Part shown: one piece after another, positions 3,577 to 23,428 of the stretch | Layout of the letters: every line of letters begins with the position of its first letter | How positions within the stretch are numbered: position 1 is the stretch's first letter | NCBI GenBank assembly: GCA_025058535.1 | Contig: JANXEL010000094.1 | Coordinates: forward strand, 4,059 to 28,058 | Origin: Ignisphaera sp. | GTDB taxonomy: Archaea > Thermoproteota > Thermoprotei_A > Sulfolobales > Ignisphaeraceae | Direction: 5' to 3' | DNA: 24,000 bases | The notes under the pieces: generated by a model | What the model was told of the DNA's origin: nothing | Database searches by the model: none | The model's input: only the letters and a program-made list of their open reading frames with translations | Made by a program: the position numbers and the translations under genes

Positions 3577-4167
3577 CTATACTTCATCGCTATATATTCT
3601 TTGCAGCGCTATATTTACTGCTGCTAAAGAATCTTCATCTTTTATGTTCTCTGCCTCCAATTTTCGTTTTGAACTCCCGTCCTCTGATATAAATTCTACT
3701 ATGGCACTCTCTTTTAACATACTTGATAATCTAACTACAAAATCATCGTATCCTTTATGAGGCTTGTTCGGAAGTCCTATCCTAACTATTTTCCTCTCTG
3801 CATCAATGCTATCTATGAACATCCTTACAACTTTTAATGCCTCAATCTTGTTCCTATAGCTATTGATGAAAACTACGTCAGAGTTCACAAGAACTGCTAC
3901 ACCTATCCTCTCTCCATAGTCTATCCCTACTATAATGCTTTCTATTCTAGTACTTGAAGTCCTAGAGAGAATAACACTCCTAATCGCACCTCTTTCAACA
4001 CCAATAGAATCGATATTTAACACCATGCCACTAATCTCTATACGCATTTCATTCATGTATCTCAAGCCATTCTCATCAGCAACAATGATACCATGAACTT
4101 TTCTACTATTTTCATCCACACCCTTCACTAGGGCTCTACATCTATTTAGTATATCCAGTACCTTCAC
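3577..4167 (-). CDS. RNase H-fold YqgF/RuvX-like putative nuclease with an extra ~80-aa N-terminal domain
   Basis: 196-aa ORF with a GTG start. The C-terminal half aligns by eye to the RuvX/YqgF signature: IVGIDYGERIGVAVL (compare FDFGTKSIGVAV), KIVRIGLPNKPHKG (compare IVVGLPLNMDG), ISEDGSS (compare HDERLST), DEDSLAAVNIAL (compare VDSASAVIIL). Confidence 0.6.
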   Translation of the reverse strand: MKVLDILNRCRALVKGVDENSRKVHGIIVADENGLRYMNEMRIEISGMVLNIDSIGVERGAIRSVILSRTSSTRIESIIVGIDYGERIGVAVLVNSDVVFINSYRNKIEALKVVRMFIDSIDAERKIVRIGLPNKPHKGYDDFVVRLSSMLKESAIVEFISEDGSSKRKLEAENIKDEDSLAAVNIALQRIYSDEV

Positions 4168-6922: not shown

Positions 6923-7738
6923 CTATGCTTTAGCATTTGAGTACTTAAATACCTTTCTTGCATACATAATGTATCCTGTATGTCCTACCATAGTTGTTGA
7001 AGGTTTTACAGACTCTGATGAAAGCTCTATTTCGCGCAGAAACACTTCACAACATCTAATATCCGTGAATCCCCTATGCCTATTCACAGCTTCAAAAAGC
7101 TTTAGTATTTGATTCATAGTTGGTAAAAAGAATACAGCGGGGGCGGACCACTTTAGAGCGTTATGTAGCGAGTCTAGAACATTCCATGGGTCAGGGATAT
7201 CCACTACAGCAGCATCAATATCAGTCTCATCTATGCCCTCTCTTGCATCCTTAAGCTTCAGTGTGACATATTGATTAAGCTTTAGAGCCTCCAGATTAGT
7301 TTGAGCAACCCTTAGGAACTCCTCCCTAATCTCATACCCATACACGTGACCGTCTGGCCTGATAGAGTTTGCTAGAACTATTGTTGTATTACCGGTGCCA
7401 ACACCTATTTCAAGAATCCTTAATCCAGGTGCTATTCCTAATAAAACTAGTATAAGTCCCAAATCTTTAGGGTAAATCACCTGAGTGACCCTTCTTATGC
7501 CCAGCTCCAAGTAATCGATAAGCAGGGGTTTAAGAAGCCAGGCATCGATATTCAGTGACGTTTTTACCTTACTCCCATAATTGAGGCCGACTAAGTCATC
7601 TAATTTTAGGTTGCCTCTATCGGATGAAAAGGTCCCACCCCTGTGGATCCTTAAGAGCCGTCTTCGCCTTCTATCTATATAGATCACAACAGAACCGTTA
7701 TACTCAATTATATCATTTTTGCTCAGACCTGGTGTCAT
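6923..7738 (-). CDS. trmI: tRNA (adenine-57/58-N1)-methyltransferase TrmI (Gcd14 family)
   Basis: 271 aa. There is an N-terminal beta domain, SAM motif [12 protein letters not shown], and [10 protein letters not shown], which is typical of TrmI/Gcd14. Confidence 0.85.
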
Positions 7739-8196
7739 ATATCATCACATCCTAAATACCTACCCTCATCATCGCTGAGTATCTTAAGCATTTACCGAGT
7801 TAAACCTATAAAACAGCATATAAACTATCATACAGGGTCCTCTACACGCTGATTAAAATGTTTCTAATAGCAATTTTCACGATCTGAATCATGGGAAACA
7901 TTTCAGATTCCATAAGCTACATGATATAGGTGACCACCTAAGGGTGCTCCATTTCATTGGGTGCACTCTCAAACTGTTAGAGTCCAATAATGTCCCTTGC
8001 CTTGGGCAGGGTATGGAAAGTGCATAGCGGTGCCGCAATGGGGTGAAAATCCAGCCTTGTGTAGATGCAACTTTTTAGTAGGCTTCGTTGATCGTCATAT
8101 CCATTAGTGTTCAGTCTCAAAAGGTGGTTACAAGAATGGTGAACCGCGAATACGGTGTTTAAGAGCATCAAAAAGAAACGCTTCTCATGCCTTCTT

Positions 8197-8954: not shown

Positions 8955-9776
8955 CTACTTAATTAAGTAGGACAGTAATTTACGTAACTTTATTAGCACG
9001 CTTTTTCTGTAATGGGTCATAAACCCCCTATCTGCACCTACACCGATCTTAACCAATAGAACCCTATCCTCACTACCTGCAAGTTCTTCAATAACATCAC
9101 CATTTTCATCTATGGCAATAGTCGGCACATCAAGTAGAATTTCGCCTCTTCTAGTTATTGTTCCACCGATCATGATAACTGTACATCTAGTTTCAATTGC
9201 CCTCATCATAGCTAGGTATCTCTGTTTATTTAGATTCACATCTAGCGAGGGATAGAAAATAAGAACGTTAATACTCGCTAGATTCAATAGTAGCGAAATT
9301 TCTGGGTAGAGAATATCCTCTGCTATAACTACACCAACTTTAAATTTGCTCATATCGAGTATAGGTACCTCAATATTCGAACCATATCCTTCAAATGCCT
9401 CCAACTGTCTCACCACCCCCTTTACACCAAGCACGGGTATTGTAAGAAAGGCACTCCTATACAGTTTTGTACCCCTTCTCTCAAGTATGGGTCCTACTAG
9501 CAGGTGCTTATTGTACTTATTAGTTATAACACATATCTTCTGTGTCGTAGTACCTGGAATTGTTTCAGCAACCCGCTTGACCCTTCTGACAGTGGTGATT
9601 AGATAGTTATACAGTGGGATCCCGTTGATCATTTGAGGGGCAACTGCCAGATCTATACTACTACTTTCGCTCAGCTTCTCAACTATCCTTTCAATCTTTG
9701 TTATATTTCTGGCTCTGTTACCTACTTCTATGGAGCTGTGGATTACCGCTATTGAAACTTCGCTTGTCTCTAGCAT
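8955..9776 (-). CDS. Carbon-nitrogen hydrolase (nitrilase superfamily) homologue, predicted catalytically inactive
   Basis: 273 aa, colinear by eye with archaeal nitrilase-fold proteins (LYRSAFLT, KVGVVI.ED..YPE, ...RAIETRCTVIM). The E-K-C triad positions read Q48 (DLAVAPQ), Q124 (GVVRQLEAF) and A152 (VVIAEDILYPE). Its ATG at 9776 overlaps the reverse gyrase stop (ATGCTAG). Confidence 0.8.
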   Translation of the reverse strand: MLETSEVSIAVIHSSIEVGNRARNITKIERIVEKLSESSSIDLAVAPQMINGIPLYNYLITTVRRVKRVAETIPGTTTQKICVITNKYNKHLLVGPILERRGTKLYRSAFLTIPVLGVKGVVRQLEAFEGYGSNIEVPILDMSKFKVGVVIAEDILYPEISLLLNLASINVLIFYPSLDVNLNKQRYLAMMRAIETRCTVIMIGGTITRRGEILLDVPTIAIDENGDVIEELAGSEDRVLLVKIGVGADRGFMTHYRKSVLIKLRKLLSYLIK

Positions 9777-12700
9777 AACTTTCTGACCTCATCCCCATGT
9801 ATGTACGGCAGTACATACATGCACATCTCTCTGTGAAGTTCATTTATAATATCAACATAATCTAGTTTCCCCGTCTCTATGCGCTGCATCTTATCATATA
9901 GTATCCTCGTCTGTTCAATAGAAACCATGCTCTTTATCTCGTCTCTAACATATTTCAATAATCCTTCAATCATCCTCTTCATTGCACCGACGTCCGCTCT
10001 CTTACTAAGTTTACTTACTAAATTCGACAACACAATCTCCAGATCTAGTTTTGCCTCTGGATATTCTGTACCAGCTAATAGTGTGTACACCAGGAAGCCG
10101 TCCGCCGATGGTATTAGTACACCTCTCCTACTCGATTTTATCACATAGCCACGTCTCATCAATATCTCAACAATTTTTGCGTATGTACTGGGCCTCCCTA
10201 TACCAACACTCTTCATCCACCTAACTAAATCCCCCTGGGTAGGCAGCCTTACCTCACTTAACTTCACAGTTTTTATTTTAGATGGTGTTAACATAAGGTC
10301 ATGCCTGGGCACATGAATTATTCTAATGTTTGAGTATAACTCTGTAAATCCAGGTTCAACAATTCCCGTAGCTATCTCCATAATCTGTTGCCACACCTCA
10401 GAACCGTTGATGTATACTTTGATTAGATACTTTGTCTTCTCAATTTTTGCAGAATTCATCTGACTAGCTATAAATCTCCTGAATATCAGATCATAGAGTT
10501 TTAGATGGTGGTTGGCAAGTCTCATGGGTGTCTCTATAACTCCCTCTGCAATAAGCTCCTTCAGCTTATTAACATCGATAGCCCTCGTTGGTCTTATACA
10601 CTCATGCGCTCCTTCCCCACTCCAAGTTCTAGGATTGAAAAGCACCTCATAATCCTTTCCATACCTAACTTTAAGATATTCCCTAGCAATCGATATACCT
10701 GTAGGTGACGTTCTTACACTGTCGGTCCTGTGGTATGTTATAAATCCTGACTCAAAAAGATCTTGTGCGACATCCATTATCTCAGAAGCATCGAGGTGTA
10801 ATACCTTCTGGGCTTCAGCAATCAGCTCATCCGTTGTAAAAGGTGGTGGAGGATGTACAACCTCTGTGTACGAATCAATTAGTTTGAACTCCAGATGGAT
10901 TTTTGAAGGTGACAACCTAATAGATTTCCCTAAAACCCTATCTATGACACCTTGCGGAACTTCCACAACTATATCGTATGCACTGAAAAGCTTGCTTGTT
11001 CTAGAAGTGAGGATTCTAGTTATGTATAGCTCCAAAACCTTTCCCAAAATTGGCGTCTGGACACGTCCTGCACTCAGTCTACCCTCCTCAGCCTTTGGGT
11101 TTACATTCATTACTCTAAACACTTTAGTTACATACTCTGAGAGGGCGAACCCAAACCACCTATCCTCAATTCTTCTAGTTATTTGTGCCTCAACTAGCGA
11201 TAAGTTGATTCCACGTGGGTTACTTAAGGCTGAAAGAATGGCCCTCCTGGTAACCTCGTGAAACTCAACACGCTTTATACTCTTAGCATACGGGGCAAGG
11301 GCTACAGCTACATCATATGCTATCTTCTCTCCTTCAGCATCGGGATCCGTTGCGATAAGAACCTCATCAACTTCGAGAGCAAGTCTCTGAAGCATATTTA
11401 TGGTCTCCCTTGACGATTTCACCCTTCCAGAACCGCATATGGGACATCTATCACCTCTTACGAACTGAGTTCCGCAGCCCAAGCACCTCTTAATATAGTC
11501 GTACTTAGGTAGAAAGAGCGTTTTACCATTGTGGAAAACCCTTACTACGCCGTATATAGAGCTTTCCGAAGCCCCCTCTTCAACAACATCAAAAATGTGA
11601 CCCCCTGTTGCAGTAATCAGCAGATGCATCCTTCCAATGGTCGTCTCATACACTTTCAATCCATCATAGATCCTTGCCGTTGGCCTGCCAAAGAAGGAAG
11701 CTATAGTTCTGGCTTTATTAGGCGACTCTACAATAAATAGCACAATTCTTGATAATTCTCCTTTCCCTCTTCGCAAGACCTCAGGTACTACGCCCTGCTT
11801 TAGCATTCTAATCATATTTCTATCTTCATCTATCTCCCTAACGATCTCATCAATATTTAGCTTGTCAAATTCTTTGAACTCAAATTCATCAATGTAGAAC
11901 CTGAGTTTCTCTTCCAAGCCCCTCAAAAGCCTGTGGTCCTCTGCAAGAAGTATGGAGAGCCCCCTGGTAATCCCTCCAACGTATAATCTTGAAGTACGTC
12001 CGCATGCTTGCAGATATGTAGGAGCATCTGGTATGAGCATGTATAGAGCTCCATTCTCCTCGATGATTGATGTCCTCGGATTCTGCTTCAGCAATTCTAT
12101 CATTTCATAATCTGATAGAATACGCTTGACGTACTCATAGACTCTCTGAATAGTTCTGGATGTATTATCCTCCCTAACAGTACCCTGCTTCAGCTCATCA
12201 ACAATGGTTTTCAGCCTTTCAACAGACGTCCTCCTCATAATTCTGCGAACAGATGCCATCATCTTGGTTACTTCATCCCTTCTCCTATCCTCAACAACCT
12301 CTACCAGTACCGATAGTATCTTTAGGAGTGATTGAGGTGAATAATCAATCCTAGTTAGTGAAACCTTATGCCTAGGCACTCCAAGAAACACCACATATCT
12401 TATCCTCTCTGGAATATCAATGCCTCTAACAAGTAGTCCATAGTACGTTGCAACACCAACTAGGACCTCAACTTCATTGTTAATAAACCGCCGTAGAGCT
12501 CCTTGCTTCTTACTGATAACCAGATCTGCTTTCACCCCGCGATTCCTAAGTACATCTACAATAATCTGTGCATATTCTACTCCTAAGTCCTGAGGAACAA
12601 GGATTATTCCACCATTGCCTAGCCTATTGACGATCATGACAGCCTTATCCGCAGCATTTTCATACGATCCTACGTAGATATACGTATCAATAACATTTCT

Positions 12701-13759
12701 GTAGACCCCAGCAGTTGAACCTATACTAAACCCGAGCACCTCCTTAAATAATCTTATCCTCCTGCCCCTAGCTCTCCCAGTCGCTGAACTGACTATGAGA
12801 AGACCACACGTCTTTCTTTTCTCGATCATGATTTTAGAGTACTCGTCAATCAATTCTTGAATTGGTTTTCCATCAATCAGACACTCGCTGTCCGCATCTA
12901 TGCAGAATGCCATCCTTCTCCTTAAATCAATCAGTCTATAGCCCATCTCGATATCTTTTTCATCAAATCCCATTAGTCTTAGTATGTATTCTACGACTCT
13001 ACTGCCCTTCATTACGGCATCCACATCATCCACAAATATGAAGCCGAATCTGCCTTTCTTTTCAATAAAGTTCTTGAAGACCCTATCAAAACTTCTACGT
13101 AGATATGCTGGAGTAGATATTACGATGTCAAAGTATCCACCTCTTATATTCTCCTCTAGTTCAATTTTCCTCTTCGGAGACATTCTTGCATGTACTGCAG
13201 CTACGTTCAGTACAATGTTTAGTTTATTTAGAAATCTCTGAATTCTTTCCTCATATTGCTGAACCAGCACCGTAGTAGGGACCAGTATGTAGACCTTTTT
13301 ACCGAACTTGTATGCAAGGTATATTGACATAACTAGACCAAATGTTGTCTTCCCCACACCGGTTGGCGCTATCATTGCAAAACTCTGGTTCTGCGCTACT
13401 CGAAGAGCCCAGCTTCGCTCTAAACTCCATAGAGATCCCCCTACGGACACTGCAAAGAAATCCTCAAAATCCTTTACGAATTTCTGAAGGGTTATAACGT
13501 TGTACAGATTCCCACTGGGATTAGCATCTACGTACTTAGCCAGCTCCTCAATACTTTCTATGTGTACCACATCTCTACCTTTCATGCACTTCTTGCACGC
13601 ATTTCTATGTATTGACCTGCAGTCCTCTACAGCTCCACCACAATTGATGCAGGTGTTCAGATATATTCCTCTCGGTGTGTAGATTTTTTCAATAACACGT
13701 TGAGTACCATTGTCCGCGGTAAGGCTTAACGCTACGACTGTCCCTGACACTTTAGGCAT
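9770..13759 (-). CDS. rgy: Reverse gyrase (SF2 helicase-like domain fused to type IA topoisomerase)
   Basis: 1329 aa. The ATG at 13759 is preceded by GGAGAGG. Features in order: N-terminal Zn finger CINCGG...CKKC; helicase motifs APTGVGKTT, FVDDVD, SSATG, QACGRTSR; Toprim IVESPNKARTI and DPDAEGEKIA; an internal Zn ribbon CLGCG...CPICG; and the topo IA active site ITYHRTDS. Confidence 0.97.
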   Translation of the reverse strand: MPKVSGTVVALSLTADNGTQRVIEKIYTPRGIYLNTCINCGGAVEDCRSIHRNACKKCMKGRDVVHIESIEELAKYVDANPSGNLYNVITLQKFVKDFEDFFAVSVGGSLWSLERSWALRVAQNQSFAMIAPTGVGKTTFGLVMSIYLAYKFGKKVYILVPTTVLVQQYEERIQRFLNKLNIVLNVAAVHARMSPKRKIELEENIRGGYFDIVISTPAYLRRSFDRVFKNFIEKKGRFGFIFVDDVDAVMKGSRVVEYILRLMGFDEKDIEMGYRLIDLRRRMAFCIDADSECLIDGKPIQELIDEYSKIMIEKRKTCGLLIVSSATGRARGRRIRLFKEVLGFSIGSTAGVYRNVIDTYIYVGSYENAADKAVMIVNRLGNGGIILVPQDLGVEYAQIIVDVLRNRGVKADLVISKKQGALRRFINNEVEVLVGVATYYGLLVRGIDIPERIRYVVFLGVPRHKVSLTRIDYSPQSLLKILSVLVEVVEDRRRDEVTKMMASVRRIMRRTSVERLKTIVDELKQGTVREDNTSRTIQRVYEYVKRILSDYEMIELLKQNPRTSIIEENGALYMLIPDAPTYLQACGRTSRLYVGGITRGLSILLAEDHRLLRGLEEKLRFYIDEFEFKEFDKLNIDEIVREIDEDRNMIRMLKQGVVPEVLRRGKGELSRIVLFIVESPNKARTIASFFGRPTARIYDGLKVYETTIGRMHLLITATGGHIFDVVEEGASESSIYGVVRVFHNGKTLFLPKYDYIKRCLGCGTQFVRGDRCPICGSGRVKSSRETINMLQRLALEVDEVLIATDPDAEGEKIAYDVAVALAPYAKSIKRVEFHEVTRRAILSALSNPRGINLSLVEAQITRRIEDRWFGFALSEYVTKVFRVMNVNPKAEEGRLSAGRVQTPILGKVLELYITRILTSRTSKLFSAYDIVVEVPQGVIDRVLGKSIRLSPSKIHLEFKLIDSYTEVVHPPPPFTTDELIAEAQKVLHLDASEIMDVAQDLFESGFITYHRTDSVRTSPTGISIAREYLKVRYGKDYEVLFNPRTWSGEGAHECIRPTRAIDVNKLKELIAEGVIETPMRLANHHLKLYDLIFRRFIASQMNSAKIEKTKYLIKVYINGSEVWQQIMEIATGIVEPGFTELYSNIRIIHVPRHDLMLTPSKIKTVKLSEVRLPTQGDLVRWMKSVGIGRPSTYAKIVEILMRRGYVIKSSRRGVLIPSADGFLVYTLLAGTEYPEAKLDLEIVLSNLVSKLSKRADVGAMKRMIEGLLKYVRDEIKSMVSIEQTRILYDKMQRIETGKLDYVDIINELHREMCMYVLPYIHGDEVRKLC

Positions 13760-13800
13760 ACCTCTCCACTAATACCTAATCATCCGTTTATTAAAAACGA

Positions 13801-13808
13801 TATATAAA
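13801..13808 (-). promoter_or_regulatory. TATA box candidate (reverse strand TTTATATA) for reverse gyrase
   Basis: It lies about 41 nt upstream of the rgy ATG. That leaves a ~17-nt leader containing the GGAGAGG SD-like motif. The call rests on position and sequence only. Confidence 0.3.
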
Positions 13809-13825
13809 CTATGATAGCTTCAATT

Positions 13826-13884
13826 CAATCAGCGAAGAGAAGTCACATCACTTCCATTCAGGAGACCGTCGTTTCATCACAAGT
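13826..13884 (-). ncRNA. C/D box sRNA (2'-O-methylation guide), canonical dual-guide architecture
   Basis: The reverse strand reads GTGATGA (C, 13880-13874), AACGACGGTCTC (12 nt), CTGA (D', 13861-13858), ATGGAA, GTGATGT (C', 13851-13845), GACTTCTCTTCG (12 nt), CTGA (D, 13832-13829). A TATA-like TTATAATA lies about 25-30 nt upstream of the C box. The D' guide is complementary over 10 nt to the conserved LSU rRNA segment AGACCGUCGU (rRNA sequence from memory). Confidence 0.7.
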
Positions 13885-13942
13885 ATTTAAATAGCTAGCT
13901 AGGTATTATAAGTATTCATGGTATTAGTGTGACCGTAGATAT

Positions 13943-13999
13943 TAAGATGATGAAACCCCATTGAATGAATGCGTGATTTGACCTGTCTCAGCTGATCCT
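13943..13999 (+). ncRNA. C/D box sRNA (2'-O-methylation guide), divergent partner of the preceding one
   Basis: The forward strand reads ATGATGA (C, 13947-13953), AACCCCATTGAA (12 nt), TGAA (degenerate D'), TGC, GTGATTT (degenerate C', 13973-13979), GACCTGTCTCAG (12 nt), CTGA (D, 13992-13995). The D guide is complementary over 11 nt to the conserved LSU rRNA segment UGAGACAGGUC (from memory). Confidence 0.65.
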
Positions 14000-14963
14000 G
14001 AAAGCTCCTTACCTCAAATGGCTACTTTTGGTTAAACCGTTTAGTCCATCAGCTACAGCACTCCAAACCATAAAACCGGATATACCTTTCCAAAGCAACT
14101 AGTTCTGTGTAAGATCTGCAGCTAAATCTTAAACCTCTAACATTTGAATTGTCCATTAATGAGAGCATGATCGACACGCTGCAGCCAGGTAAAACCAGTG
14201 CTGTGGTAGGTCATACATCTGAGGATATAGCGTGGATGGAGCAGACGACTTTACCTATAAAAACCTGTGCTGCAATCTTGAGCTCATACACCACTATATA
14301 GATGAACCACCACTCGTACTGTGAATTAAATGGAAGTCTGTTGAAGGGTGATAGGAACATGACCTATGTGCAGTAAGTGTAAAGAATTTCCGTGGAAGAG
14401 TGCCAGAGAGGTTTTTGTGTGAATACAGTTAAAAGTAACTGCAGCAGGCTTTGAGATCTCACGGCGCTTTTGAAAGGATGGTTGTCAACAGTTTCATAAC
14501 CTTCCAGAGGACAAAAAGGAGGTGTACTTCAATACCCGTCAATCCAATGTCTACAGCTTCAAACAAATGAATAAATTAAAGTGCCGGGAGCTTTGCAGAC
14601 TGTAATCCCCGTGAAGTTTCCGAACTAAAATTGTAAATAACGTTAATTAACTAGGGCAGCACTGTCGGATAGGACCTTGGATTTGGTGAGAACCAGGGCT
14701 CAGAAATCTAATTTGAATATTATAGAGTTGAAAGAGTCGAGCGAAGAGTAGTTAGAGATGTTGAGGAATTAGAAACCGTGACCTACAGTTTCATGGGAGT
14801 TCTGCGGCATAGGGAAATTTCAGCGGAGAATGTAGAGGCTCTAGTGTAGGTAGGAAATAACTTTTGCCTTGGTAAGCCATGTAATTTAAGTTTTAAAGTA
14901 ATTGAAGTGAGCCCTAGTTAAGGTTCGGAACCCTATTGCAACATCAAATTCACCAGTGATTAC

Positions 14964-15022
14964 TTTATCAGCGATCGAAGGCTTCTTCACCAGCTCCGAT
15001 AAACCCCGTTCTCATCACCACA
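14964..15022 (-). ncRNA. C/D box sRNA (2'-O-methylation guide)
   Basis: The reverse strand reads GTGATGA (C, 15018-15012), GAACGGGGTTTA (12 nt), TCGG (degenerate D'), AGCTG, GTGAAGA (C', 14990-14984), AGCCTTCGATCG (12 nt), CTGA (D, 14971-14968). A TATA-like TATATAAT (reverse complement of 15045-15052) lies about 30 nt upstream. Targets were not identified. Confidence 0.6.
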
Positions 15023-15090
15023 TGTAGTATTACCTATGTCACAGATTATATAGGTTAACGCTTTATAAGAGATTTCACGGCGTTGCAAAA

Positions 15091-15384
15091 ATGGATAAAA
15101 AGATCCCTCCCCAGCTGCTCCTACTATCAATCATAGCTCAGAGTAGAGATGGTCTAACAATTGGCGATCTTGTAAGTAGATTACGAAGCATGTATAGAAA
15201 TGGTTGGAACTCATACTACAGCTTTGGCAAGCGTATAGACATTGGGATTCCAAGCGAACTCCTACAAGACATCAACGTGCTGAAATTGCTGAACCTTGTG
15301 GAAGAGAGGGGTAACAAGCTGGTTGCCACCCAAAAGGCGTACGACTTGCTCTCAAGGATAGAAAGTCACACGAATACCAGGTAA
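15091..15384 (+). CDS. Small hypothetical protein, possibly winged-helix DNA-binding
   Basis: 97-aa ORF with an ATG start. TTTATAAG at 15062-15069 lies 22-29 nt upstream, consistent with a leaderless transcript. The LTIGDLVSRL ... LLNLVEERGNKLVATQKAYDLL pattern resembles a wHTH recognition helix plus wing. The function call is weak. Confidence 0.6.
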   Translation: MDKKIPPQLLLLSIIAQSRDGLTIGDLVSRLRSMYRNGWNSYYSFGKRIDIGIPSELLQDINVLKLLNLVEERGNKLVATQKAYDLLSRIESHTNTR

Positions 15385-15435: not shown

Positions 15436-16206
15436 TTAAAAATTCCAAAACTTACCACGGTGCTTAACAGCTGTGATCTGGTGTGCAACTGTTCCAATAA
15501 CGTATGCATTGTCGCTCCTAGTCTTTCGATACCCTATATACCCGCTACTTAGAATCTTTAGTCCCGATCTCACAAACACATCTACAAGTTCACCCAGTGA
15601 GTAGAGGTAGTAGTACCTCCAGTAGATCCTCCCTCTTTTTTTCCACGGTATGTAAAATTCCCTTACGTTATCCACTAACCTAAGCACGTAGAGCAGCATA
15701 TTTCTAAGAATAGATAATGCGAATCGCAGTTGCCTCCAGGACCATACAGTAACAACTATTATGCTAAGTGGCCTAGCTACACGACGTATCTCCCTCAGAA
15801 TTCTTAAACCATACACTCTAGGAATGTGGTGTAGCGAAGCTATAGATAGTATAGAATCTGCTGCGGAGTCCCTAATTGGAATAAAAAACATGTCTGCTGC
15901 AATCGCATCCCCCAGCACATTTTCCTTGACCATGTTCCTCCTACTTATTACGGCCATTGAAAGCGATATGTCCAGGCAGATGAGGTATCTTCCCTTCTTA
16001 TACCTGGTAGCATGGATTCCATTAACGCAGGAACCTGAACCCAGATCCAGAACTACACCACCTTTGATAACCCTGGCTATGGGCCAGGGTGCTGATCTGA
16101 GAATAGAGAAGGTGTCAGCTATTTCTTCGTACACTTGCAGAGTGTGGATAATCTTTGCCCTACCACTCACCTTTCTCCATATCGCACTGAACCCCATTAC
16201 AACCAC
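15436..16206 (-). CDS. trm9: Trm9-like class I SAM-dependent methyltransferase (tRNA wobble cm5U to mcm5U type)
   Basis: 256 aa (GTG at 16206; ATG three codons later). Trm9/ALKBH8-type blocks: VYEEIADTFSILRSAPWP, SAM motif VVLDLGSGSC, SIASLHHIP, ILREIRRVARP...VTVWSWRQ. It lies directly downstream of elp3. Confidence 0.8.
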   Translation of the reverse strand: MVVMGFSAIWRKVSGRAKIIHTLQVYEEIADTFSILRSAPWPIARVIKGGVVLDLGSGSCVNGIHATRYKKGRYLICLDISLSMAVISRRNMVKENVLGDAIAADMFFIPIRDSAADSILSIASLHHIPRVYGLRILREIRRVARPLSIIVVTVWSWRQLRFALSILRNMLLYVLRLVDNVREFYIPWKKRGRIYWRYYYLYSLGELVDVFVRSGLKILSSGYIGYRKTRSDNAYVIGTVAHQITAVKHRGKFWNF

Positions 16207-16256
16207 CAGCTGAGATGCGGCATTTTGATGACACTCTAATTTTGAGGATGCTACTT

Positions 16257-17708
16257 CTAGAGGCTGCTCGTTAGCTCCTTAGCCATGTAAGGCGCTCCAT
16301 TAAGCCTTCTATAACCCAGCTTTCTATAGTACTCTCGTGCGCCAACCCCCGATAACACGTACACAGTATTACAGCTGAATTCGTATCTGGCTATCTCCTC
16401 TGCTACACTCATCAATTCTGCCCCCCAACCCTTATGCTGCCACGCATCATCAATACGTGCTTCTATGGGAACCTGTGGACCGTATATATGGAGCTCTCTA
16501 ACAAGAGCTGTTCTACTGCAGATTTCTCTTCTGTGAGCTTTCTCCGACGGAATTCTAAGCCTAAGTAGGCCCACAATGATATCGTTCTCCGTATCCTCTA
16601 CCGCCAAGAATATCTCCATACCTCTACTCGCTTCATAGTACTCTCTTGTTATTGAAACTCTGCCCAGCTTCCTACCTCTATACAGAAGCTGCCTCCCAAC
16701 CTCTCTATACCTTATCTCACTAATTTTTATACCCTTCTCAATAGCCCTCTCCTCAATAAGCTCGCGAAGATTTGCTTTCTTAGGTCCTGCAACAATAAGC
16801 GGTGCAGGTATGTCCCTTTGAATCCTCATAACTCTGACCCACCTTGGAATGTATCTGTAGAACTCTGACACCAATTCAACTGCATCGTCATCGGTTAAAG
16901 CGGTGTACATACCCGCCCTCCATAGCTCATACAACCTTGTCCCCTCTACAACCACCACTGGATATATCTTCAGCATATCTGGCCTGTAGTCCGGGTTCTC
17001 AAAAATTTCTCTAATCATTGCGATATCTCTATCCAGGTTAGAGCCGGGTAGACCTGGCATGACATGGTATACAACCTTATACCCTGCATCCTTTAGAAGT
17101 CTTGTAGCTTCAACCACGTCCTCTACGGTGTGCCCACGTGAGACAAGGTTTAGAACATCATTATATATGCTCTGCACCCCCAGCTCTACCTTAGTCGCCC
17201 CTAAGTAGAGCATAAAGTCTATCTGTTTCTCCTTAGCCCAGTCCGGCCTAGTTTCAATCGTTAATCCAACTACCCTTATCCTAGCGCTTTCATTTCTTAG
17301 ATGCGCCTCATCAAGAGAGGGCAGCGAGGCCGGTCTTGGATCTGGATACCTGTTGAAGGCCTCGAAAACACTTGCTACAAACGATACCTGATAGTCCACA
17401 GGCATGGCTGTAAAGGTGCCGCCCATAATTATCACCTCAATTTTGCTTGGCACATGACCCAGAGCCTCATACTGCTTCAGCCTTAAACAAACTTGTTCAT
17501 ATGGATCAAAGTTCACCTGGATACCCCTCATCAAGGCAGGCTCACTGCCTATGTAGCTCTGCGGTGTGCCAAACTCAGGCCCACCCGGACAGTAGATGCA
17601 TCTCCCATGTGGACATGGGTAGGGCCTCGTCATAACAGCCACTATAGTAACGCCGGACAGCATCCTCGTAGGCCTCTTAACCCCTTCAAATGTCTTAATG
17701 TTCTGCAT
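16257..17708 (-). CDS. elp3: Elp3 homologue (radical-SAM plus GNAT acetyltransferase; tRNA U34 cm5 modification)
   Basis: 483 aa. It has the radical-SAM cluster motif CPHGRCIYCPGG, LTIETRPDW, and a C-terminal GNAT motif QHKGWGAELMSVAEEIA. Confidence 0.92.
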   Translation of the reverse strand: MQNIKTFEGVKRPTRMLSGVTIVAVMTRPYPCPHGRCIYCPGGPEFGTPQSYIGSEPALMRGIQVNFDPYEQVCLRLKQYEALGHVPSKIEVIIMGGTFTAMPVDYQVSFVASVFEAFNRYPDPRPASLPSLDEAHLRNESARIRVVGLTIETRPDWAKEKQIDFMLYLGATKVELGVQSIYNDVLNLVSRGHTVEDVVEATRLLKDAGYKVVYHVMPGLPGSNLDRDIAMIREIFENPDYRPDMLKIYPVVVVEGTRLYELWRAGMYTALTDDDAVELVSEFYRYIPRWVRVMRIQRDIPAPLIVAGPKKANLRELIEERAIEKGIKISEIRYREVGRQLLYRGRKLGRVSITREYYEASRGMEIFLAVEDTENDIIVGLLRLRIPSEKAHRREICSRTALVRELHIYGPQVPIEARIDDAWQHKGWGAELMSVAEEIARYEFSCNTVYVLSGVGAREYYRKLGYRRLNGAPYMAKELTSSL

Positions 17709-17749
17709 GGTAGGACCGCTGGAGGAATTCTAGCTGTCTAGTCGGGAAT

Positions 17750-18157
17750 CTACCGTACTCCTCTTAAGAGCTTTAAGGGATCCCTAGCAATGACGTGACC
17801 AGGAACTCTATCTCTATACTTTCTTATAAATAGCTTCTCAACTACCCTGATCCTTGTGGAGAGCCTGATATCGTCTGGGTACATAAGGGCCACACCACCT
17901 ATAATGGGGTACCATCTCCAACACCTTTCACACACAATGATTCCTGACACAATATCTTTGGAAAGGCATAAGTCGCAGTTGATCAGATCTACACCAATCT
18001 CTCTAGTATGCCTGCCACAGAATCCACAGAAGACATCACAGAAAGGTTTCTCAGAAACACCTATACTAGTTAGAGTTCTCTCCTCAAAAACGTAAAGCTT
18101 TAGAGGAAAACATCTGCACATGGGGCAGGCAAGGAGATTTAATGAAGCGTACCTCAT
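17750..18157 (-). CDS. trm112: Trm112-like zinc-ribbon protein (methyltransferase activator), extended form
   Basis: Trm112/DUF343 signature: LNLLACPMCRCFPL ... IIVCERCWRWYPIIGGVALMYPDD. It is interrupted by a Cys-rich insert (CDVFCGFCGRH...CDLC) and followed by a ~45-aa tail. ATG at 18157; the ORF track extends to a TTG at 18172. Confidence 0.75.
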   Translation of the reverse strand: MRYASLNLLACPMCRCFPLKLYVFEERTLTSIGVSEKPFCDVFCGFCGRHTREIGVDLINCDLCLSKDIVSGIIVCERCWRWYPIIGGVALMYPDDIRLSTRIRVVEKLFIRKYRDRVPGHVIARDPLKLLRGVR

Positions 18158-18276
18158 GATGCTGCTACCCAAAGTTCATCATTGGATAGGGACAATTATG
18201 TCCACCTCTATATTGGGAGATAAGCTATTTAAGTCTACAGTGTAGAGTAGTGTTCAAATTGGTAGAGGGTTTGAGC

Positions 18277-18981
18277 ATGCAGATAGAAGATTGGAAGACC
18301 TTCAGGAGGGTTGAGGCTGACATTCAGAAGAGCTTTCCAGACGAAATACACGAGTTTCTCACAAAAGTGTTCAATGTCTACCTCATCAGATTTCCACTTC
18401 AGGTGTTTAAGCAGTTTGAGGTTGTTAGAGACAAGCTAATCCCCCTCACCTCCAGATTCGATAACGATAAGTATAATGAGTACTGCGATGCGTTTTCAAA
18501 GGTTTATAGAGCGGTTCTGCTCGATAGGGCTATATCAGACGATATCAAGAAGCTCGTCCTGGAATTAGCATCTAAGGCGAATAGCTTCTTTACCTCAAGA
18601 AGCATGCCGCTATGTGTAAAAGAGGTAAAGTACTATGGAGTTAGAGTTAAAGCTGTATTTGAAGGAAAGCCTCTATCAGATACGCTTGTCGTCGTAGAAT
18701 CTGAAGGACGTGTCATTGCATCCACCAAGACGGACCCCAACGGTATTGCGTATGTCGAGGTTCCTGAGGGAAAGTACGATATATACCTCTATAAGGGTCT
18801 AGATGGCGGCAAGTATGTATATGAGGAGAAGAACATGGTCGTGCCACAGGATAGCGAGGTTGTGTTTAGTGTGAGTGAGACTAAGACTCGTACTGAAATA
18901 GAGAAGGAGCGTGAAGGAAGGCCCGTGATAAGGGAGGTCTCCGAATCGTTAGAGGAGCCTAGGGTTGGTGAACATAGCTAG
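18277..18981 (+). CDS. Hypothetical cytoplasmic protein with a C-terminal carboxypeptidase-regulatory-like (transthyretin-like) beta-sandwich
   Basis: The ORF track starts at GTG 18250. ATG 18277 has GAGGG 7 nt upstream and a TATA-like CTATTTAAG at 18225-18233. VRVKAVFEGKPLSDTLVVVESEGRVIASTKTDPNGIAYVEVPEGKYDIYLYK fits the CarboxypepD_reg-like pattern. There is no signal peptide. Confidence 0.65.
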   Translation: MQIEDWKTFRRVEADIQKSFPDEIHEFLTKVFNVYLIRFPLQVFKQFEVVRDKLIPLTSRFDNDKYNEYCDAFSKVYRAVLLDRAISDDIKKLVLELASKANSFFTSRSMPLCVKEVKYYGVRVKAVFEGKPLSDTLVVVESEGRVIASTKTDPNGIAYVEVPEGKYDIYLYKGLDGGKYVYEEKNMVVPQDSEVVFSVSETKTRTEIEKEREGRPVIREVSESLEEPRVGEHS

Positions 18982-19959
18982 CTCATCTATGGTGCACGAG
19001 TAGATCTTTCTATCCAATCTGCTAAGATACTCTATTACAAGAGGGCTGTTATTAAGAAGGGCCTCATCGAGGGCCAACCTGAGATCCTCTATCGTATGCA
19101 TTTTCCTATTATTTATGGATAGCAGGATATCACCATCGCTGAATCCGCACACTCTAGATATATTTGGGTTCAGAATTCTAGAGATTACGAGACCGTATCG
19201 AAGTCCGAAGTGTGTAGCTATACTTCTCAACGCAAGCACGTTTATCCCAAGTACTATGTGTGCAATCCTACCATACCTTTTTAGGATTCTGTAGCTGTAT
19301 AGCACTCTGGTAGAGGGTGTAGCAAGGGAAAACTCATTTGCGTCAAACGCCTTTGCTACAACCATACCAACAACGGAGCCGTTGAGATCCACTATGGGGC
19401 TTCCACTCATCCCCATCAATATTGGTAGACTCAATAGCAGAAGGCCCTCAATCAAACCGTACCCAACATCAGCCTTCACCTCAGAACCGCTCACAATACC
19501 CACTGATAAAAATGGTCTTAGAATACCGTACGCCGTACCACATGCTATAACAAAATCTCCAATGGAAGCCATGGAGTCCTTCAAAGAAATCGGTTCGCGT
19601 TTCACACTACTTTGTATGAACATCAAATCCCACCTAGAATCTACATCAATAATCTCACCTTCAATTACATCTCCATTGAGATCCAGAAGGCATATCCTTC
19701 CATCACCTATATGCTGCAGTGAGTGCATCACTGTTGCAACTACAGAGCTATCTATGTAGAAGCCTGTTGCTACAGCATTCAAGTAGCCATTATCTCTAGC
19801 CACCTCCATACAATCAATGCTCCTATCCCTTGGAATGAGCACCATAGTGGTTGAATCGATTGTCCTTACTATCAATTTCTTTAGCTCTCCTTCAATAAGC
19901 CTTAGATTTGTGTTACCAACATCAGTAAGCGCAATCCTATCGCTTTTAGCACTGTCCAT
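18949..19959 (-). CDS. Trypsin-like serine protease with C-terminal PDZ domain (HtrA/DegP-like)
   Basis: Catalytic contexts: ATVMHSL (His), WDLMFIQ (Asp), GMSGSPIV (Ser). A PDZ-like region follows (GLVISRI...GDILLSINNRKM). The ORF is open to 20058, but ATG 19959 (MDSAKSD...) has a TATA-like element about 30 nt upstream. Neither start gives a signal peptide. Confidence 0.8.
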   Translation of the reverse strand: MDSAKSDRIALTDVGNTNLRLIEGELKKLIVRTIDSTTMVLIPRDRSIDCMEVARDNGYLNAVATGFYIDSSVVATVMHSLQHIGDGRICLLDLNGDVIEGEIIDVDSRWDLMFIQSSVKREPISLKDSMASIGDFVIACGTAYGILRPFLSVGIVSGSEVKADVGYGLIEGLLLLSLPILMGMSGSPIVDLNGSVVGMVVAKAFDANEFSLATPSTRVLYSYRILKRYGRIAHIVLGINVLALRSIATHFGLRYGLVISRILNPNISRVCGFSDGDILLSINNRKMHTIEDLRLALDEALLNNSPLVIEYLSRLDRKIYSCTIDELAMFTNPRLL

Positions 19960-20130
19960 TTTACCTCGTATATTATCCTTTTCACAGATATAATATGTGG
20001 TGTGAAGCCCTATAACGAATTCAATTGAAGCACGGGCCCACCCTGTGAACTCGAGCATCTGCTGCGCGGTTCATTACTCTAAGGCTTATAAACTGATTTT
20101 CTGTACTCACCGTGATAAGGTGTATAGCAG

Positions 20131-20913
20131 GTGGGTATTGTAGATCTGTCAAATTTCTTATCAGAGGTGGGCAGGGTCGTTATAGTTATGAGTGGAAAAG
20201 GTGGTGTGGGTAAATCTATCATAGCTAGCTCTCTCGCAATAGGGCTTGCACTAAAGGGTCGCAGTGTTGCCATTCTCGATGCTGATATCCATGGCCCCAG
20301 TGTGCCGTGGATTATGGGTGTCGAGAACGGGTACATGACTGTGGACAGCGACGGTTTCATAAACCCCATTGAGATTGAGAATATTGCTGTGATTTCAATA
20401 GAGCTTCTGCTAACAAATAAAGATGTGCCCCTAATATGGCGTGGTCCACTGAAAACCCGCGCAATTCTGGAGATTCTATCAAGGACTAGAGTGGGCAAGA
20501 GAGACTACCTCATTATAGATATGCCTCCGGGTACAGGTGATGAACCTCTAACCATTGTGCAGCATTTAAAAAATAAGATTATGGGTGCAGTACTTGTAAC
20601 AGTACCTGGAGAGCTTGTCAAGCACGTTGTTACAAAAGCTGAGATCTTCCTTAAAGAGCTAGGTGTACCTCTACTTGGAATAGTGGTAAACATGTCCTAC
20701 TTTAAATGCCCTACATGCAATACCATACACAGGCTTTTTGGTGCAACCAGTATAATGAATGAGAATATAATTGCAGAGATACCTATAGATCCCCTCCTAG
20801 CCCAAATGGTTAGTAGTGGTAAGCTTATAGACTATCTAAAGGGAAGCAGCAGTACAGCCAAATCCCTTCTTAGAATAGCAGATAGCGTGGCGAACATGGA
20901 AGCACAAAAATGA
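20131..20913 (+). CDS. Mrp/NBP35/ApbC-family Fe-S cluster carrier ATPase
   Basis: 260 aa. GTG start with AGGTG 9 nt upstream. Motifs: deviant Walker A MSGKGGVGKS, IIDMPPGTGD, and the conserved C-x-x-C (KCPTC). Confidence 0.9.
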   Translation: MGIVDLSNFLSEVGRVVIVMSGKGGVGKSIIASSLAIGLALKGRSVAILDADIHGPSVPWIMGVENGYMTVDSDGFINPIEIENIAVISIELLLTNKDVPLIWRGPLKTRAILEILSRTRVGKRDYLIIDMPPGTGDEPLTIVQHLKNKIMGAVLVTVPGELVKHVVTKAEIFLKELGVPLLGIVVNMSYFKCPTCNTIHRLFGATSIMNENIIAEIPIDPLLAQMVSSGKLIDYLKGSSSTAKSLLRIADSVANMEAQK

Positions 20914-20984
20914 GTTTACAGCCGAAATTAGGGTGGTGGGTAGGTCAAGCCTCTGAATGGGAGAAAGGCGGGTCGTTGACCTGG

Positions 20985-21857
20985 CTACACCCTAACCCTT
21001 TTGACCAATATAATCCTATTTTGAAGCCCCACCTTCTCAATTCTAACAATTCCAAGCTTCTCAAGCTTTCTAATATGCCTCCACAGTGTGGTTTTAGGTA
21101 TGTTTATGCTGTTCTGCAGCTCTGCCTGTAGAGCTGAACCACCCTTTGCATCTAGAACTTTGATTATGGCTACATCTACATCATTAAGTGTTTCAATGAG
21201 CTCCCTCGGTCTTCTCTTCTTTAGGTAAAGATACATCCCCACTACAGCAGCGACCGCAATAAGACCCGCTGTGGATATCCACAGCACATAGTTTGGCTGT
21301 CCCATGGATGGCTGAGTGGTCCACTGGGTATCTGTAGGAGTTGTTTTTATAGGCGGTGATATCTGCGGTGGTCGCAATGTGTACCTTAATTCCTGTGGAC
21401 CCCTTATTGTAAGTGTAAGTGTGTTGCCTTCCCTTTCATAGCTGACTATCTCCCTTGGAACTGTGAGGAGAACTACATTTGGTACAGGTATTCTGAGGGT
21501 GGTGGTGATGTTGGTCTCTATCAGTAGGTAGAATATGCTGTCCACTATGGACACATTAGCGATGTACGAAATATTGACAGAGGAAGATTCTTGCACAATT
21601 AGGTAAAGCGTTCTATTCTCATACATCACTGGAATCGGCTCACCATCAGCCACAGCTACAATGGTTTCAGGTATCGGTTCAACTGGGGCTTCAACAATCT
21701 GAAGCCCATCATTAAGATGTGCATGGATCTCTACAGATACTACACCGTGCTCATTAATGGTTATCATCACCGAATCCTGTGCATACAGCACTGGGCTAGC
21801 TGATGTAGATAGAAAGCATATCAGGAAAATCACAATCAGTAATCCGTAAGTATCCAT
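20985..21857 (-). CDS. Membrane-tethered winged-helix transcription regulator (signal peptide/anchor, extracytoplasmic domain, TM helix, cytoplasmic wHTH)
   Basis: 290 aa. Hydrophobic N-terminus LLIVIFLICFLSTSASPVLYA, then a ~160-aa beta-rich domain with N-x-S/T sites and a Pro/Thr linker. TM helix YVLWISTAGLIAVAAVVGMYLYL is followed by KKRRPR. C-terminal wHTH: DVAIIKVLDAKGGSALQAELQNSINIPKTTLWRHIRKLEKLGIVRIEKVG. Confidence 0.8.
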   Translation of the reverse strand: MDTYGLLIVIFLICFLSTSASPVLYAQDSVMITINEHGVVSVEIHAHLNDGLQIVEAPVEPIPETIVAVADGEPIPVMYENRTLYLIVQESSSVNISYIANVSIVDSIFYLLIETNITTTLRIPVPNVVLLTVPREIVSYEREGNTLTLTIRGPQELRYTLRPPQISPPIKTTPTDTQWTTQPSMGQPNYVLWISTAGLIAVAAVVGMYLYLKKRRPRELIETLNDVDVAIIKVLDAKGGSALQAELQNSINIPKTTLWRHIRKLEKLGIVRIEKVGLQNRIILVKRVRV

Positions 21858-22156
21858 TGAGATCCAGCACCATTTTCACAGCTTATCATTTAACATCCTA
21901 GCACTCTCTACTAGGAGTGGAGCTTATATGTGTTTACTCTACCGAATGTATCTGAATTCTTTAAAATGTTGTGTGCTATACTGGGCTACCTGGATGCTGT
22001 ATGGTAGGGGAAGTAGTTGCAGATCAGCATTCTCCTTTCTGCACAGAAGTGATCACCGAGTCTCCAGAGGGGGTCATGCTTCATTATGTGCTATTTTTAA
22101 TGCATTAATAAGCGTGTGAAACTTCGGCCGCATAGTACCACGGTTTTGATTTCAGG

Positions 22157-22197
22157 TGTATAATTTTTTATACCTGTATAAGAAAATACGTGTATAA
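22157..22197 (+). promoter_or_regulatory. Three direct TGTATAA repeats (22157, 22175, 22191) plus an imperfect inverted repeat CAGGTGTATAA/TTATACCTG (22153-22176); promoter/operator candidate for the RHH gene at 22210
   Basis: Read directly. The repeat spacing is 18 and 16 nt. The repeats overlap TATA-like sequences and end 13 nt before the ATG. A GGTG SD-like motif lies at 22198-22201. Confidence 0.3.
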
Positions 22198-22209
22198 GGT
22201 GTTACGCCC

Positions 22210-22914
22210 ATGGGGAGTGAAGATGAGTTTAGAAAGGAATTTGAGAAATTGTTGAATGAATTAAAAGGAAATGTCGAGAGGCTTGCTGCGGATATTGAGA
22301 AGATGTTAGATGGAGGTAACATTAGGGAAGCGTATAGAATTTGGAGGGAGAGGTCGAGAGAAGTTATCAGGAAGTTAAAGGAGCGTGTTGATGAACTTGA
22401 AAAGATGGGTGAGAGTATCGATGAGAAGACGGTGAGGGAGATCGTTAGTGAGTTTAAAGATAAGATTGATGAGGTTGTGAAGGAGGTATCCGACGTTTTC
22501 AACAGTATTTTGAAGAGGTTCAGGGAGTTTGATGTTGATGTAGCTGTGCCACTATCCCTTCATAGAGTTCCTAAGATATTCGTAAGAACATTTGAGGACG
22601 TATTTAACTCTGTGGTTGAGGCATTTGAAGATGTCGAGGAGGCTATAGAGGAGGGTTTGAAGAGTGCGGCTCGAGGCGGACTAAGCAGCGTCATCTCAGC
22701 TAGGATTAGAAGGAAGGAGCTTGAGTTAATAGATCGGCTTGTTGATGCTGGTATATTCAGGAGTAGAAGTGAAGCTATAGCATACTTTGTTAGAAGGGGT
22801 GTGGAGTCTAGTAGAGAATGGATAGAAAAGGCCTTGGAGCAGGCTAAGAAGATTAGAGAGCTTCAAGATTCCATAAGAAGGGAGCTAGGGGATATTGATA
22901 AAGATGATGAGTAG
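22210..22914 (+). CDS. Coiled-coil protein with C-terminal ribbon-helix-helix (CopG-like) DNA-binding domain
   Basis: 234 aa. The N-terminal ~170 aa are E/K/R-rich with heptad-like periodicity. The C-terminal ISARIRRKELELIDRLVDAGIFRSRSEAIAYFVRRGVE is an RHH signature. The antisense ORF 22152..22502 is low-complexity (Ser/Leu/Phe-rich) and spurious. Confidence 0.75.
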   Translation: MGSEDEFRKEFEKLLNELKGNVERLAADIEKMLDGGNIREAYRIWRERSREVIRKLKERVDELEKMGESIDEKTVREIVSEFKDKIDEVVKEVSDVFNSILKRFREFDVDVAVPLSLHRVPKIFVRTFEDVFNSVVEAFEDVEEAIEEGLKSAARGGLSSVISARIRRKELELIDRLVDAGIFRSRSEAIAYFVRRGVESSREWIEKALEQAKKIRELQDSIRRELGDIDKDDE

Positions 22915-22918
22915 AGCT

Positions 22919-23428
22919 CTACATTCTTCTCCTCAACTGATTATAGACGCCAACCACACCTATTAGAATAGCAATTATAAGTGCTATAGTAGGCTGCAGC
23001 CCTAGTGCAATTGTGCTTTTGTAGACTAGAGAGGCACCTGTTGCAGCAAACAGCACTGCCAGTACATTGCTACTCAGTATATATATCACAGCAGCTAGCA
23101 CTATTGTCATCAGTAGAGTTAGTACAGCTCCTCTAACGAGTATTGTTGAGATTGCATAGCCAAACACTATCGATAGAGCAACCTTAAACAAGGTGAAGCC
23201 AATGATAAACCCTATGAAGATAGCCAATATCGTGAATAGTATGGATAGCGCTACGCTATGAAATAACCCGTACGTAAGAATGTGGGTTGCGTAGCCCAAT
23301 ACGGCTGCAAAGGCCAACGATGAGATGAATCTAGCCAGCTGCACACCCCAGATGCACATAGCCAGTCCTATGATGGTGGCAATAACGTGTGCAGGAACAT
23401 CAATTCCTTCAATGATGATTTGGGGCAA
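22919..23428 (-). CDS. Integral membrane protein (about 5 TM helices), function unknown
   Basis: 169 aa and almost entirely hydrophobic, with a short basic C-terminus (QLRRRM). TTG start at 23428; TATA-like ATTTATATA about 30 nt upstream. Confidence 0.7.
   Translation of the reverse strand: MPQIIIEGIDVPAHVIATIIGLAMCIWGVQLARFISSLAFAAVLGYATHILTYGLFHSVALSILFTILAIFIGFIIGFTLFKVALSIVFGYAISTILVRGAVLTLLMTIVLAAVIYILSSNVLAVLFAATGASLVYKSTIALGLQPTIALIIAILIGVVGVYNQLRRRM

Follow-up and report, generated by a model that had tools for sequence, protein, structure and literature searches.

Why does the genome of Ignisphaera sp. keep 1331 nucleotides (nt) of DNA with no sizeable open reading frame (ORF) beside its reverse gyrase gene? 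We addressed this question in a stretch of 24,000 nt, hereafter the window (assembly GCA_025058535.1, contig JANXEL010000094.1, positions 4,059 to 28,058 of the forward strand), where the gap at 13760-15090 lies between the start of the reverse gyrase gene and a gene for a protein of 97 amino acids (aa). The gap is the longest spacer of the window, the next largest being 458, 407, and 352 nt. None of its six frames contains an ORF of at least 60 codons (longest, 50 aa); 22% of the whole-gap shuffles were likewise free of ORFs of at least 60 aa. A first-pass annotation of this DNA had reported both the unusual length and the missing ORFs, and both were confirmed. It had also placed three C/D box small RNA (sRNA) genes at the gap edges and singled out 14001-14963 as the unexplained part. 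This division held as well: the edge elements show canonical boxes and 12-nt guide spacing and are kept in three other Ignisphaera lineages, and the core between them is real and went unmatched in our searches.

According to the explanation we favor, the gap would hold three C/D box sRNA genes that guide 2'-O-methylation, a conserved cluster in which each gene has its own promoter, and the core of ~965 nt would be DNA gained in one Ignisphaera lineage. The sRNAs are conserved, the core is restricted to this lineage, and it has no detectable homology, structure, or repeat. The elements in question are the following.

Predicted sRNA-1, 13884 to 13827, minus strand: box C GTGATGA, 12-nt guide, D' CTGA, C' GTGATGT, 12-nt guide, D CTGA.
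Predicted sRNA-2, 13943-13998, plus strand: box C ATGATGA, degenerate D'/C' (ATGA / GTGATTT), invariant D guide ACCTGTCTCAG, D CTGA.
Lineage-specific core, 13999-14964, no strand: ~965 nt of orphan DNA, unconserved, that separates the convergent sRNA-2 and sRNA-3 at their 3' ends.
Predicted sRNA-3, 15022 to 14965, minus strand: box C GTGATGA, guide, D' CGGA, C' GTGAAGA, guide AAGCCTTCGATCG, D CTGA.

For comparison, contigs of relatives were fetched through the three other clusters of the 97-aa protein. Four lineages were compared: the window; L006-L010 with the metagenome contig L015 (99.8% identical to L006); L012; and L013. They lie about equally far from one another, as judged by 81-85% aa identity in an Elp3-like protein. 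The same gene order, the three sRNAs, and the promoter-like A/T boxes are kept in all three other lineages. The boxes and the D guides are invariant or nearly so in the alignment of the four lineages, and the flanks diverge. The boxes and both guides of sRNA-1 are nearly invariant in L006, L012, and L013, and sRNA-2 and sRNA-3 are also kept in the relatives. The L012 orthologue of sRNA-1 (L012 7542-7605, minus strand) carries a 12-nt insertion between D' and C', with both guides intact.

The three edge elements have no mismatch in box C, CTGA as box D, and a C-to-D distance within 45-75 nt (3 of 3). Their guide spacers measure 11-13 nt and 12 nt. Internal D'/C' boxes are present and degenerate in sRNA-2 and sRNA-3; such degenerate boxes are common in archaea. 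No Rfam family was assigned to any of the three at gathering score (whole window; E <= 10 on 13600-15250). The best match, of sRNA-3 to snoPyro_CD, reached 26 bits (E 0.0086) against a gathering score of 45; the C/D matches of sRNA-1 lay at 19-23 bits, and all matches other than that of sRNA-3 at 14-23 bits. The archaeal C/D models of Rfam are guide- and genus-specific, so these sub-threshold scores argue against those particular families and not against the C/D class. We take the edge elements to be real C/D box sRNA genes on the strength of their conservation. They are predicted 2'-O-methylation guides and new, unannotated members of the archaeal class that stand outside the curated Rfam families.

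The edge sRNAs resemble known archaeal C/D box sRNAs (snoPyro_CD RF00095 and the sR families of Sulfolobus and Pyrobaculum) in their C/D'/C'/D boxes, guides of ~12 nt, and length of 50-58 nt, as well as in their own predicted promoters and in guides kept across species. They differ from the curated Rfam families in that all score below the gathering thresholds. In Pyrobaculum, C/D sRNA genes are clustered, convergent or divergent, and overlap gene ends (PMC6009581), and the edge sRNAs are alike in clustering, layout, and gene-end overlap. This comparison applies to the edge elements only, not to the core. Neither rRNA nor tRNA genes were found within the window (Rfam, ARAGORN). A fourth, canonical C/D box sRNA (ATGATGA ... 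GTGATGA ... CTGA) was recognized at 7723-7772 on the minus strand and is kept in L006 and L012. Through its D guide and D box, it overlaps the ATG annotated at 7738 for a PCMT-like methyltransferase gene (6923-7738).

The spacers around the sRNAs hold the candidate promoters.

5' region of the reverse gyrase gene, 13760-13826, minus strand: Shine–Dalgarno (SD)-like GGAGAGGT and conserved A/T boxes TTTATATATCG and TTTTTAATAAA (minus-strand reading).
Putative divergent promoter region, 13885-13942, no strand: 58 nt between sRNA-1 and sRNA-2 with the conserved box ATAATAAGTATT (13907-13918).
Putative back-to-back promoter region, 15023-15090, no strand: TATATAAT (minus-strand reading) for sRNA-3 and GCTTTATAAG for the 97-aa gene.

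Within a conserved alignment block, ATAATAAGTATT sits ~27-31 nt from the 5' ends of both sRNA-1 and sRNA-2, and it may be a shared bidirectional TATA element. The A/T boxes of 13760-13826 are kept across the four Ignisphaera lineages in the alignment; their position points to a promoter role. Position likewise suggests the promoter roles in 15023-15090, where AGATTATATA is kept in all lineages. The ATG of the 97-aa gene follows the TATA-like GCTTTATAAG by ~25 nt, a spacing that suggests a leaderless mRNA.

The distance from the reverse gyrase gene to the 97-aa gene is 369 nt in the L006 group, 525 nt in L012, 511 nt in L013, and 1331 nt in the window. The alignments end exactly at the D box of sRNA-2 and restart at the D box of sRNA-3; therefore, all of the length variation lies between the 3' ends of these two genes. 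The slot between the convergent ends measures ~12 nt in L006-L010 and L015, ~165 nt in L012, ~165 nt in L013, and ~965 nt in the window. The four slot fillers showed no detectable similarity to each other, and the core (13999-14964) had no counterpart in any relative compared (L006-L010, L012, L013, L015). Conservation of the core, one of the two grounds on which the first-pass annotation had let its claim stand or fall, was thus not found. In the L006-type spacer, everything is promoter or sRNA except the few bases between the convergent D boxes. It is here that three lineages hold extra DNA, different in each, so the junction behaves like an indel-tolerant slot. The sRNA-2/sRNA-3 3' junction would then be the sole position in the spacer that tolerates gain or loss of DNA without damage to a promoter or an sRNA.

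The core-bearing gap was also found in the Ignisphaera sp. metagenome-assembled genome (MAG) GCA_026414015.1 (JAOAJU010000001.1) and in two independent Logan assemblies, so it is not a misassembly. One Logan copy is identical, and the other differs by 7 single-nucleotide polymorphisms (SNPs) over 5.9 kb, of which two, at 14084 and 14460, fall within the core. Two Ignisphaera lineages were present in one sample: L004 and L013 both come from run SRR7039829. L004 is the window strain (7 SNPs in 5.9 kb), and the co-occurring L013, with ~84% aa identity in the Elp3-like protein, has a 165-nt filler in the same slot. A scan of contigs with the N-terminus of reverse gyrase returned only 41%-identical Desulfurococcales MAGs, all lacking the sRNA cluster. 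A metagenome scan with the conserved sRNA-3 pattern returned one further contig belonging to the L006 group; two other matches were due to chance and were not rRNA.

What, then, is the core? The first-pass annotation had listed four explanations and favored none. The core bears no mark of selection or function, and we consider it probable that it is functionless filler; its most plausible origin is a plus-strand coding segment, orphan or acquired, that has since decayed. Should transcripts of the core exist, they would reflect passive read-through that starts in the sRNA genes on either side. That the DNA was gained here and not lost elsewhere, that it began as a gene, and that it lacks a function are what we infer from the comparisons above and from the searches and statistics that follow.

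The first-pass annotation had argued from a coding-like composition. This argument has no discriminating power: the GC content is 41.1% in the core, 41.9% in the other spacers of the window, and 42.5% in its genes. With intergenic and genic values this close, GC content cannot separate spacers, genes, and RNA genes in this genome. The motifs that had been listed were located exactly: CTGCAGC at 14116, 14179, and 14439, the TAAGAT/ATCTTA hairpin, the palindromes TAACGTTA (14638-14645) and TTAATTAA (14643-14650), the stop-free stretch 14113-14298, and the ATG ORF 14167-14301. Two of those offered as noteworthy turned out to be at or below chance. In 91% of the core shuffles, the longest open stretch exceeds the stop-free stretch in length, and some heptamer is present at least three times in 58% of the shuffles, as CTGCAGC is in the core. 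In the whole window, CTGCAGC occurs 9 times over both strands versus 3.07 expected, a count reached in 1 of 100 shuffles; two of the sites form the palindrome GCTGCAGC (e.g., 14178-14185 and 22993-23000).

Homology searches of the core returned nothing. Its six-frame translations (X for stops) had no credible match in Pfam, PHROGs, NCBIfam, or PADLOC; the single six-frame match, Polysacc_deac_3, was discarded (E 0.012, 14.6 bits versus a cut-off of 28.5). A concatenated six-frame query had 0 matches at E <= 10 among 5.8 billion proteins, a search that remnants below ~35-40 bits would escape. When ORFs from the window, L001, L002, L006, L010, L012, and L013 were compared with the core by tblastn, only chance-level matches appeared. 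Comparison with phages and plasmids (blastn, 'distant' mode) gave nothing real, and three exact 20-22-mers and one peptide query found no match in viral contigs. TRF detected no tandem repeats in the core, and the direct and inverted repeats were all short two-copy matches. Two local duplications were considered and rejected. A hidden Markov model of the 97-aa family was negative against the core, where GAGATCTCACGGCG at 14453 matches the upstream region of the 97-aa gene in 13 of 14 positions. The nhmmer profiles of the three sRNAs gave no significant hit (E 0.39, 0.7 bits); the core contains short matches to sRNA-1, among them AGCGAAGAGTAGT at 14740.

Three features inside the core were inspected individually.

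Stop-free stretch of 62 codons, 14113-14298, plus strand: contains the 44/50-codon ORF 14149/14167-14301; a chance-level open frame.
Purine-rich patch, 14581-14880, plus strand: weak coding-like signal in the frame whose codon first base has a coordinate divisible by 3, interrupted by stops.
Inverted-repeat segment, 14647-14921, no strand: 275 nt with the perfect 11-nt inverted repeat TTAACTAGGGC / GCCCTAGTTAA; at chance level.

The coding-like signal is weak and confined to the plus strand. Codon log-odds, trained on the genes of the window, are ~+6 in one plus frame over 14090-14270 and up to +15 in another over 14660-14850; reverse gyrase reaches ~+20 and the 97-aa gene +6 to +10. Period-3 power is 1.5-1.63 in both patches, compared with 1.58 at the 95th percentile of the shuffles and a median of 2.09 for genes. 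Over 14301-14963, the plus strand is 57% purine, similar to the coding strands of the window. The translation of the second patch reads as a charged peptide (...YYRVERVERRVVRDVEELETVTYSFMGVLRHREISAENVEALV...) with 4 stops in ~110 codons, and the patch at 14581-14880 may be what is left of an orphan ORF that has decayed. In strand-symmetric 4-mer signature, the core and the remainder of the window correlate at r 0.57, compared with 0.74 +/- 0.06 for other segments of 963 nt. The suggestion of a decayed gene made in the first-pass annotation is therefore the one that came through in part: these statistics are compatible with it, and the homology it would predict was not found in Pfam, NCBIfam, PHROGs, PADLOC, or the 5.8 billion proteins.

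The closest rival of the filler reading draws on the same signal. The core could be a pseudogene of a once-functional gene, ancestral or acquired, that stood between the reverse gyrase and 97-aa genes and has already been deleted in the other lineages. The positive log-odds and period-3 power in the two patches, the purine bias, and a stop-interrupted translation resembling a charged thermophile protein all speak for it. However, the statistics are marginal, the core has no homologue at any level searched, no intact version is known, and the relatives hold no remnant. We rate this account as unlikely, though ahead of those below.

An active role of the core would take one of two forms, and we give each a rather low probability. 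The core may be a young, lineage-specific expressed locus, a long non-coding RNA (ncRNA) or one or more micro-protein genes arising de novo from recently gained DNA; its expression could be driven by read-through that starts at the sRNA promoters or by internal TATA-like boxes at ~14253 and ~14716. Alternatively, it may encode lineage-specific ncRNAs, unstructured regulatory or antisense transcripts or a non-canonical guide, from such internal boxes. Several A/T boxes in the core indeed look like local promoters (e.g., CCTATAAAAAC at 14253 and ATATTATAGAG at 14716), and sRNA genes cluster at this locus, with the fourth at 7723-7772. Against the ncRNA proposal, Rfam 15 had nothing at gathering score in the core and only two noise matches (11-14 bits) at E <= 10, and ARAGORN found no tRNA or tmRNA there. 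A relaxed scan for further C/D sRNAs yielded 0 candidates in the core (average in shuffles, 0.01). Folding of 120-nt windows on both strands gave a best z of ~-2.4 to -2.5, which is the chance minimum of 62 windows. Stable RNAs of hyperthermophiles are usually G+C-rich, and the 41% GC of the core equals the background. The core is also unconserved in relatives. Further sRNAs or a structured long ncRNA, both raised in the first-pass annotation, thus found no support in Rfam, the C/D scan, folding energy, or GC content, and the comparison of the syntenic region flanking reverse gyrase that it had called for left the core unalignable.

Small protein genes, either the 44/50-codon ORF 14149/14167-14301 or a 49-codon antisense ORF 14211-14360, are quite improbable. 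The ORFs exist, and the log-odds of the plus frame of 14149-14301 (codon start mod 3 = 1) are slightly positive. They are nevertheless shorter than chance expectation and have 0 homologues among 5.8 billion and 1.84 billion proteins (the latter, representative proteins, were searched with the 62-aa stretch). Gene callers left them uncalled in three assemblies, they are absent from the relatives, and reading by eye revealed no evident SD sequence or TATA box at the right distance. This part of the first-pass annotation was not borne out.

We assign an equally slight chance to the core, or its 275-nt segment 14647-14921, being the relic of a non-autonomous mobile element, namely a miniature inverted-repeat transposable element (MITE) or an insertion sequence, with TTAACTAGGGC as terminal repeats and TTAA as target duplication. 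The perfect 11-nt inverted repeat, its copies 253 nt apart and flanked by a possible TTAA duplication (copy number checked in 24 kb only), would fit, as would the slot acting as an insertion site and the atypical oligonucleotide signature. Perfect inverted repeats of at least 11 nt, however, arise in 17.5% of the shuffles, and the 291-nt segment closed by the repeat folds with z = -1.4. The six-frame Pfam, PHROGs, and NCBIfam searches showed no transposase remnant; the phage, plasmid, and viral searches gave no matches; and the 24-kb window holds no other full copy, only a half-site with 1 mismatch at 4124. With the inverted repeat at chance level, we do not call the segment a mobile element. 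A replication origin, which the first-pass annotation had suggested, is rejected: apart from the short AT-rich palindromic block at 14634-14650, there are no ORB-like or other repeated elements, no skew inflection, and no orc1/cdc6 or whiP nearby, and relatives that retain the locus lack the core.

Several points weigh against the reading of the core as functionless, newly gained filler. A transcript or micro-protein peculiar to this lineage may arise from the core. With four lineages about equally far apart, a loss elsewhere may account for the difference as well as a gain here. Neutral spacer is unalignable at this divergence anyway, so what the dissimilarity of the fillers shows is a lack of genus-wide constraint, not that the core is functionless in this lineage. 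The coding-like signal is marginal, its period-3 component lying only at the 95th percentile of the shuffles. The 4-mer comparison does not tell non-coding from foreign DNA, and the search for further copies of the core covered ~24 kb of this genome.

Among known systems, the core is most like lineage-specific intergenic insertions or orphan pseudogene remnants: it occurs in one lineage, at an indel-tolerant site, with no ORF, homologue, or conservation and with faint coding statistics. It is unlike typical insertions in its length: in a compact archaeal genome whose other spacers are at most 458 nt, ~1 kb with no apparent function is unusually long, and this is the sole unusual property of the core. 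MITE-like elements resembling sRNAs and the duplication or transposition of sRNA genes have been described in Pyrobaculum (PMC6009581). The core is similar in that the extra DNA adjoins C/D sRNA genes and contains short sRNA-1 matches, but the sRNA profiles are not significant, the terminal repeats are not above chance, and multiple copies were not seen.

The genes on either side of the gap are as follows.

Reverse gyrase gene, 9770-13759, minus strand: ORF of 1329 aa.
97-aa gene, 15091-15384, plus strand: ORF.

The stop region of the reverse gyrase gene and the start of the CN_hydrolase gene that follows it downstream (8955-9776) have 7 nt in common (9770-9776). The overlap is kept in relatives and suggests co-transcription. 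Among 5.8 billion proteins, the 97-aa protein has 4 clusters and is confined to Ignisphaera; the three clusters other than its own share 67-73% identity with it, and no Pfam family was assigned. Further downstream, a block of ~7 kb following a 95-aa gene is inverted in L012 (8644-15829) relative to the window (15436-22914) and the L006 group. It comprises genes for a methyltransferase, the Elp3-like protein, Trm112, Trypsin_2, ParA, and HTH_24, with the breakpoint just after the 95-aa gene.

The immediate gain for Ignisphaera is in annotation: four predicted, previously unannotated C/D box guide RNA genes, three in the gap and one at 7723-7772. The convergent sRNA junction appears to be a hot spot of spacer turnover, ranging from 12 to ~965 nt among sister lineages. 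The core itself would matter only if its expression showed that, in the compact genome of a hyperthermophile, a new gene is emerging from ~1 kb of orphan DNA.

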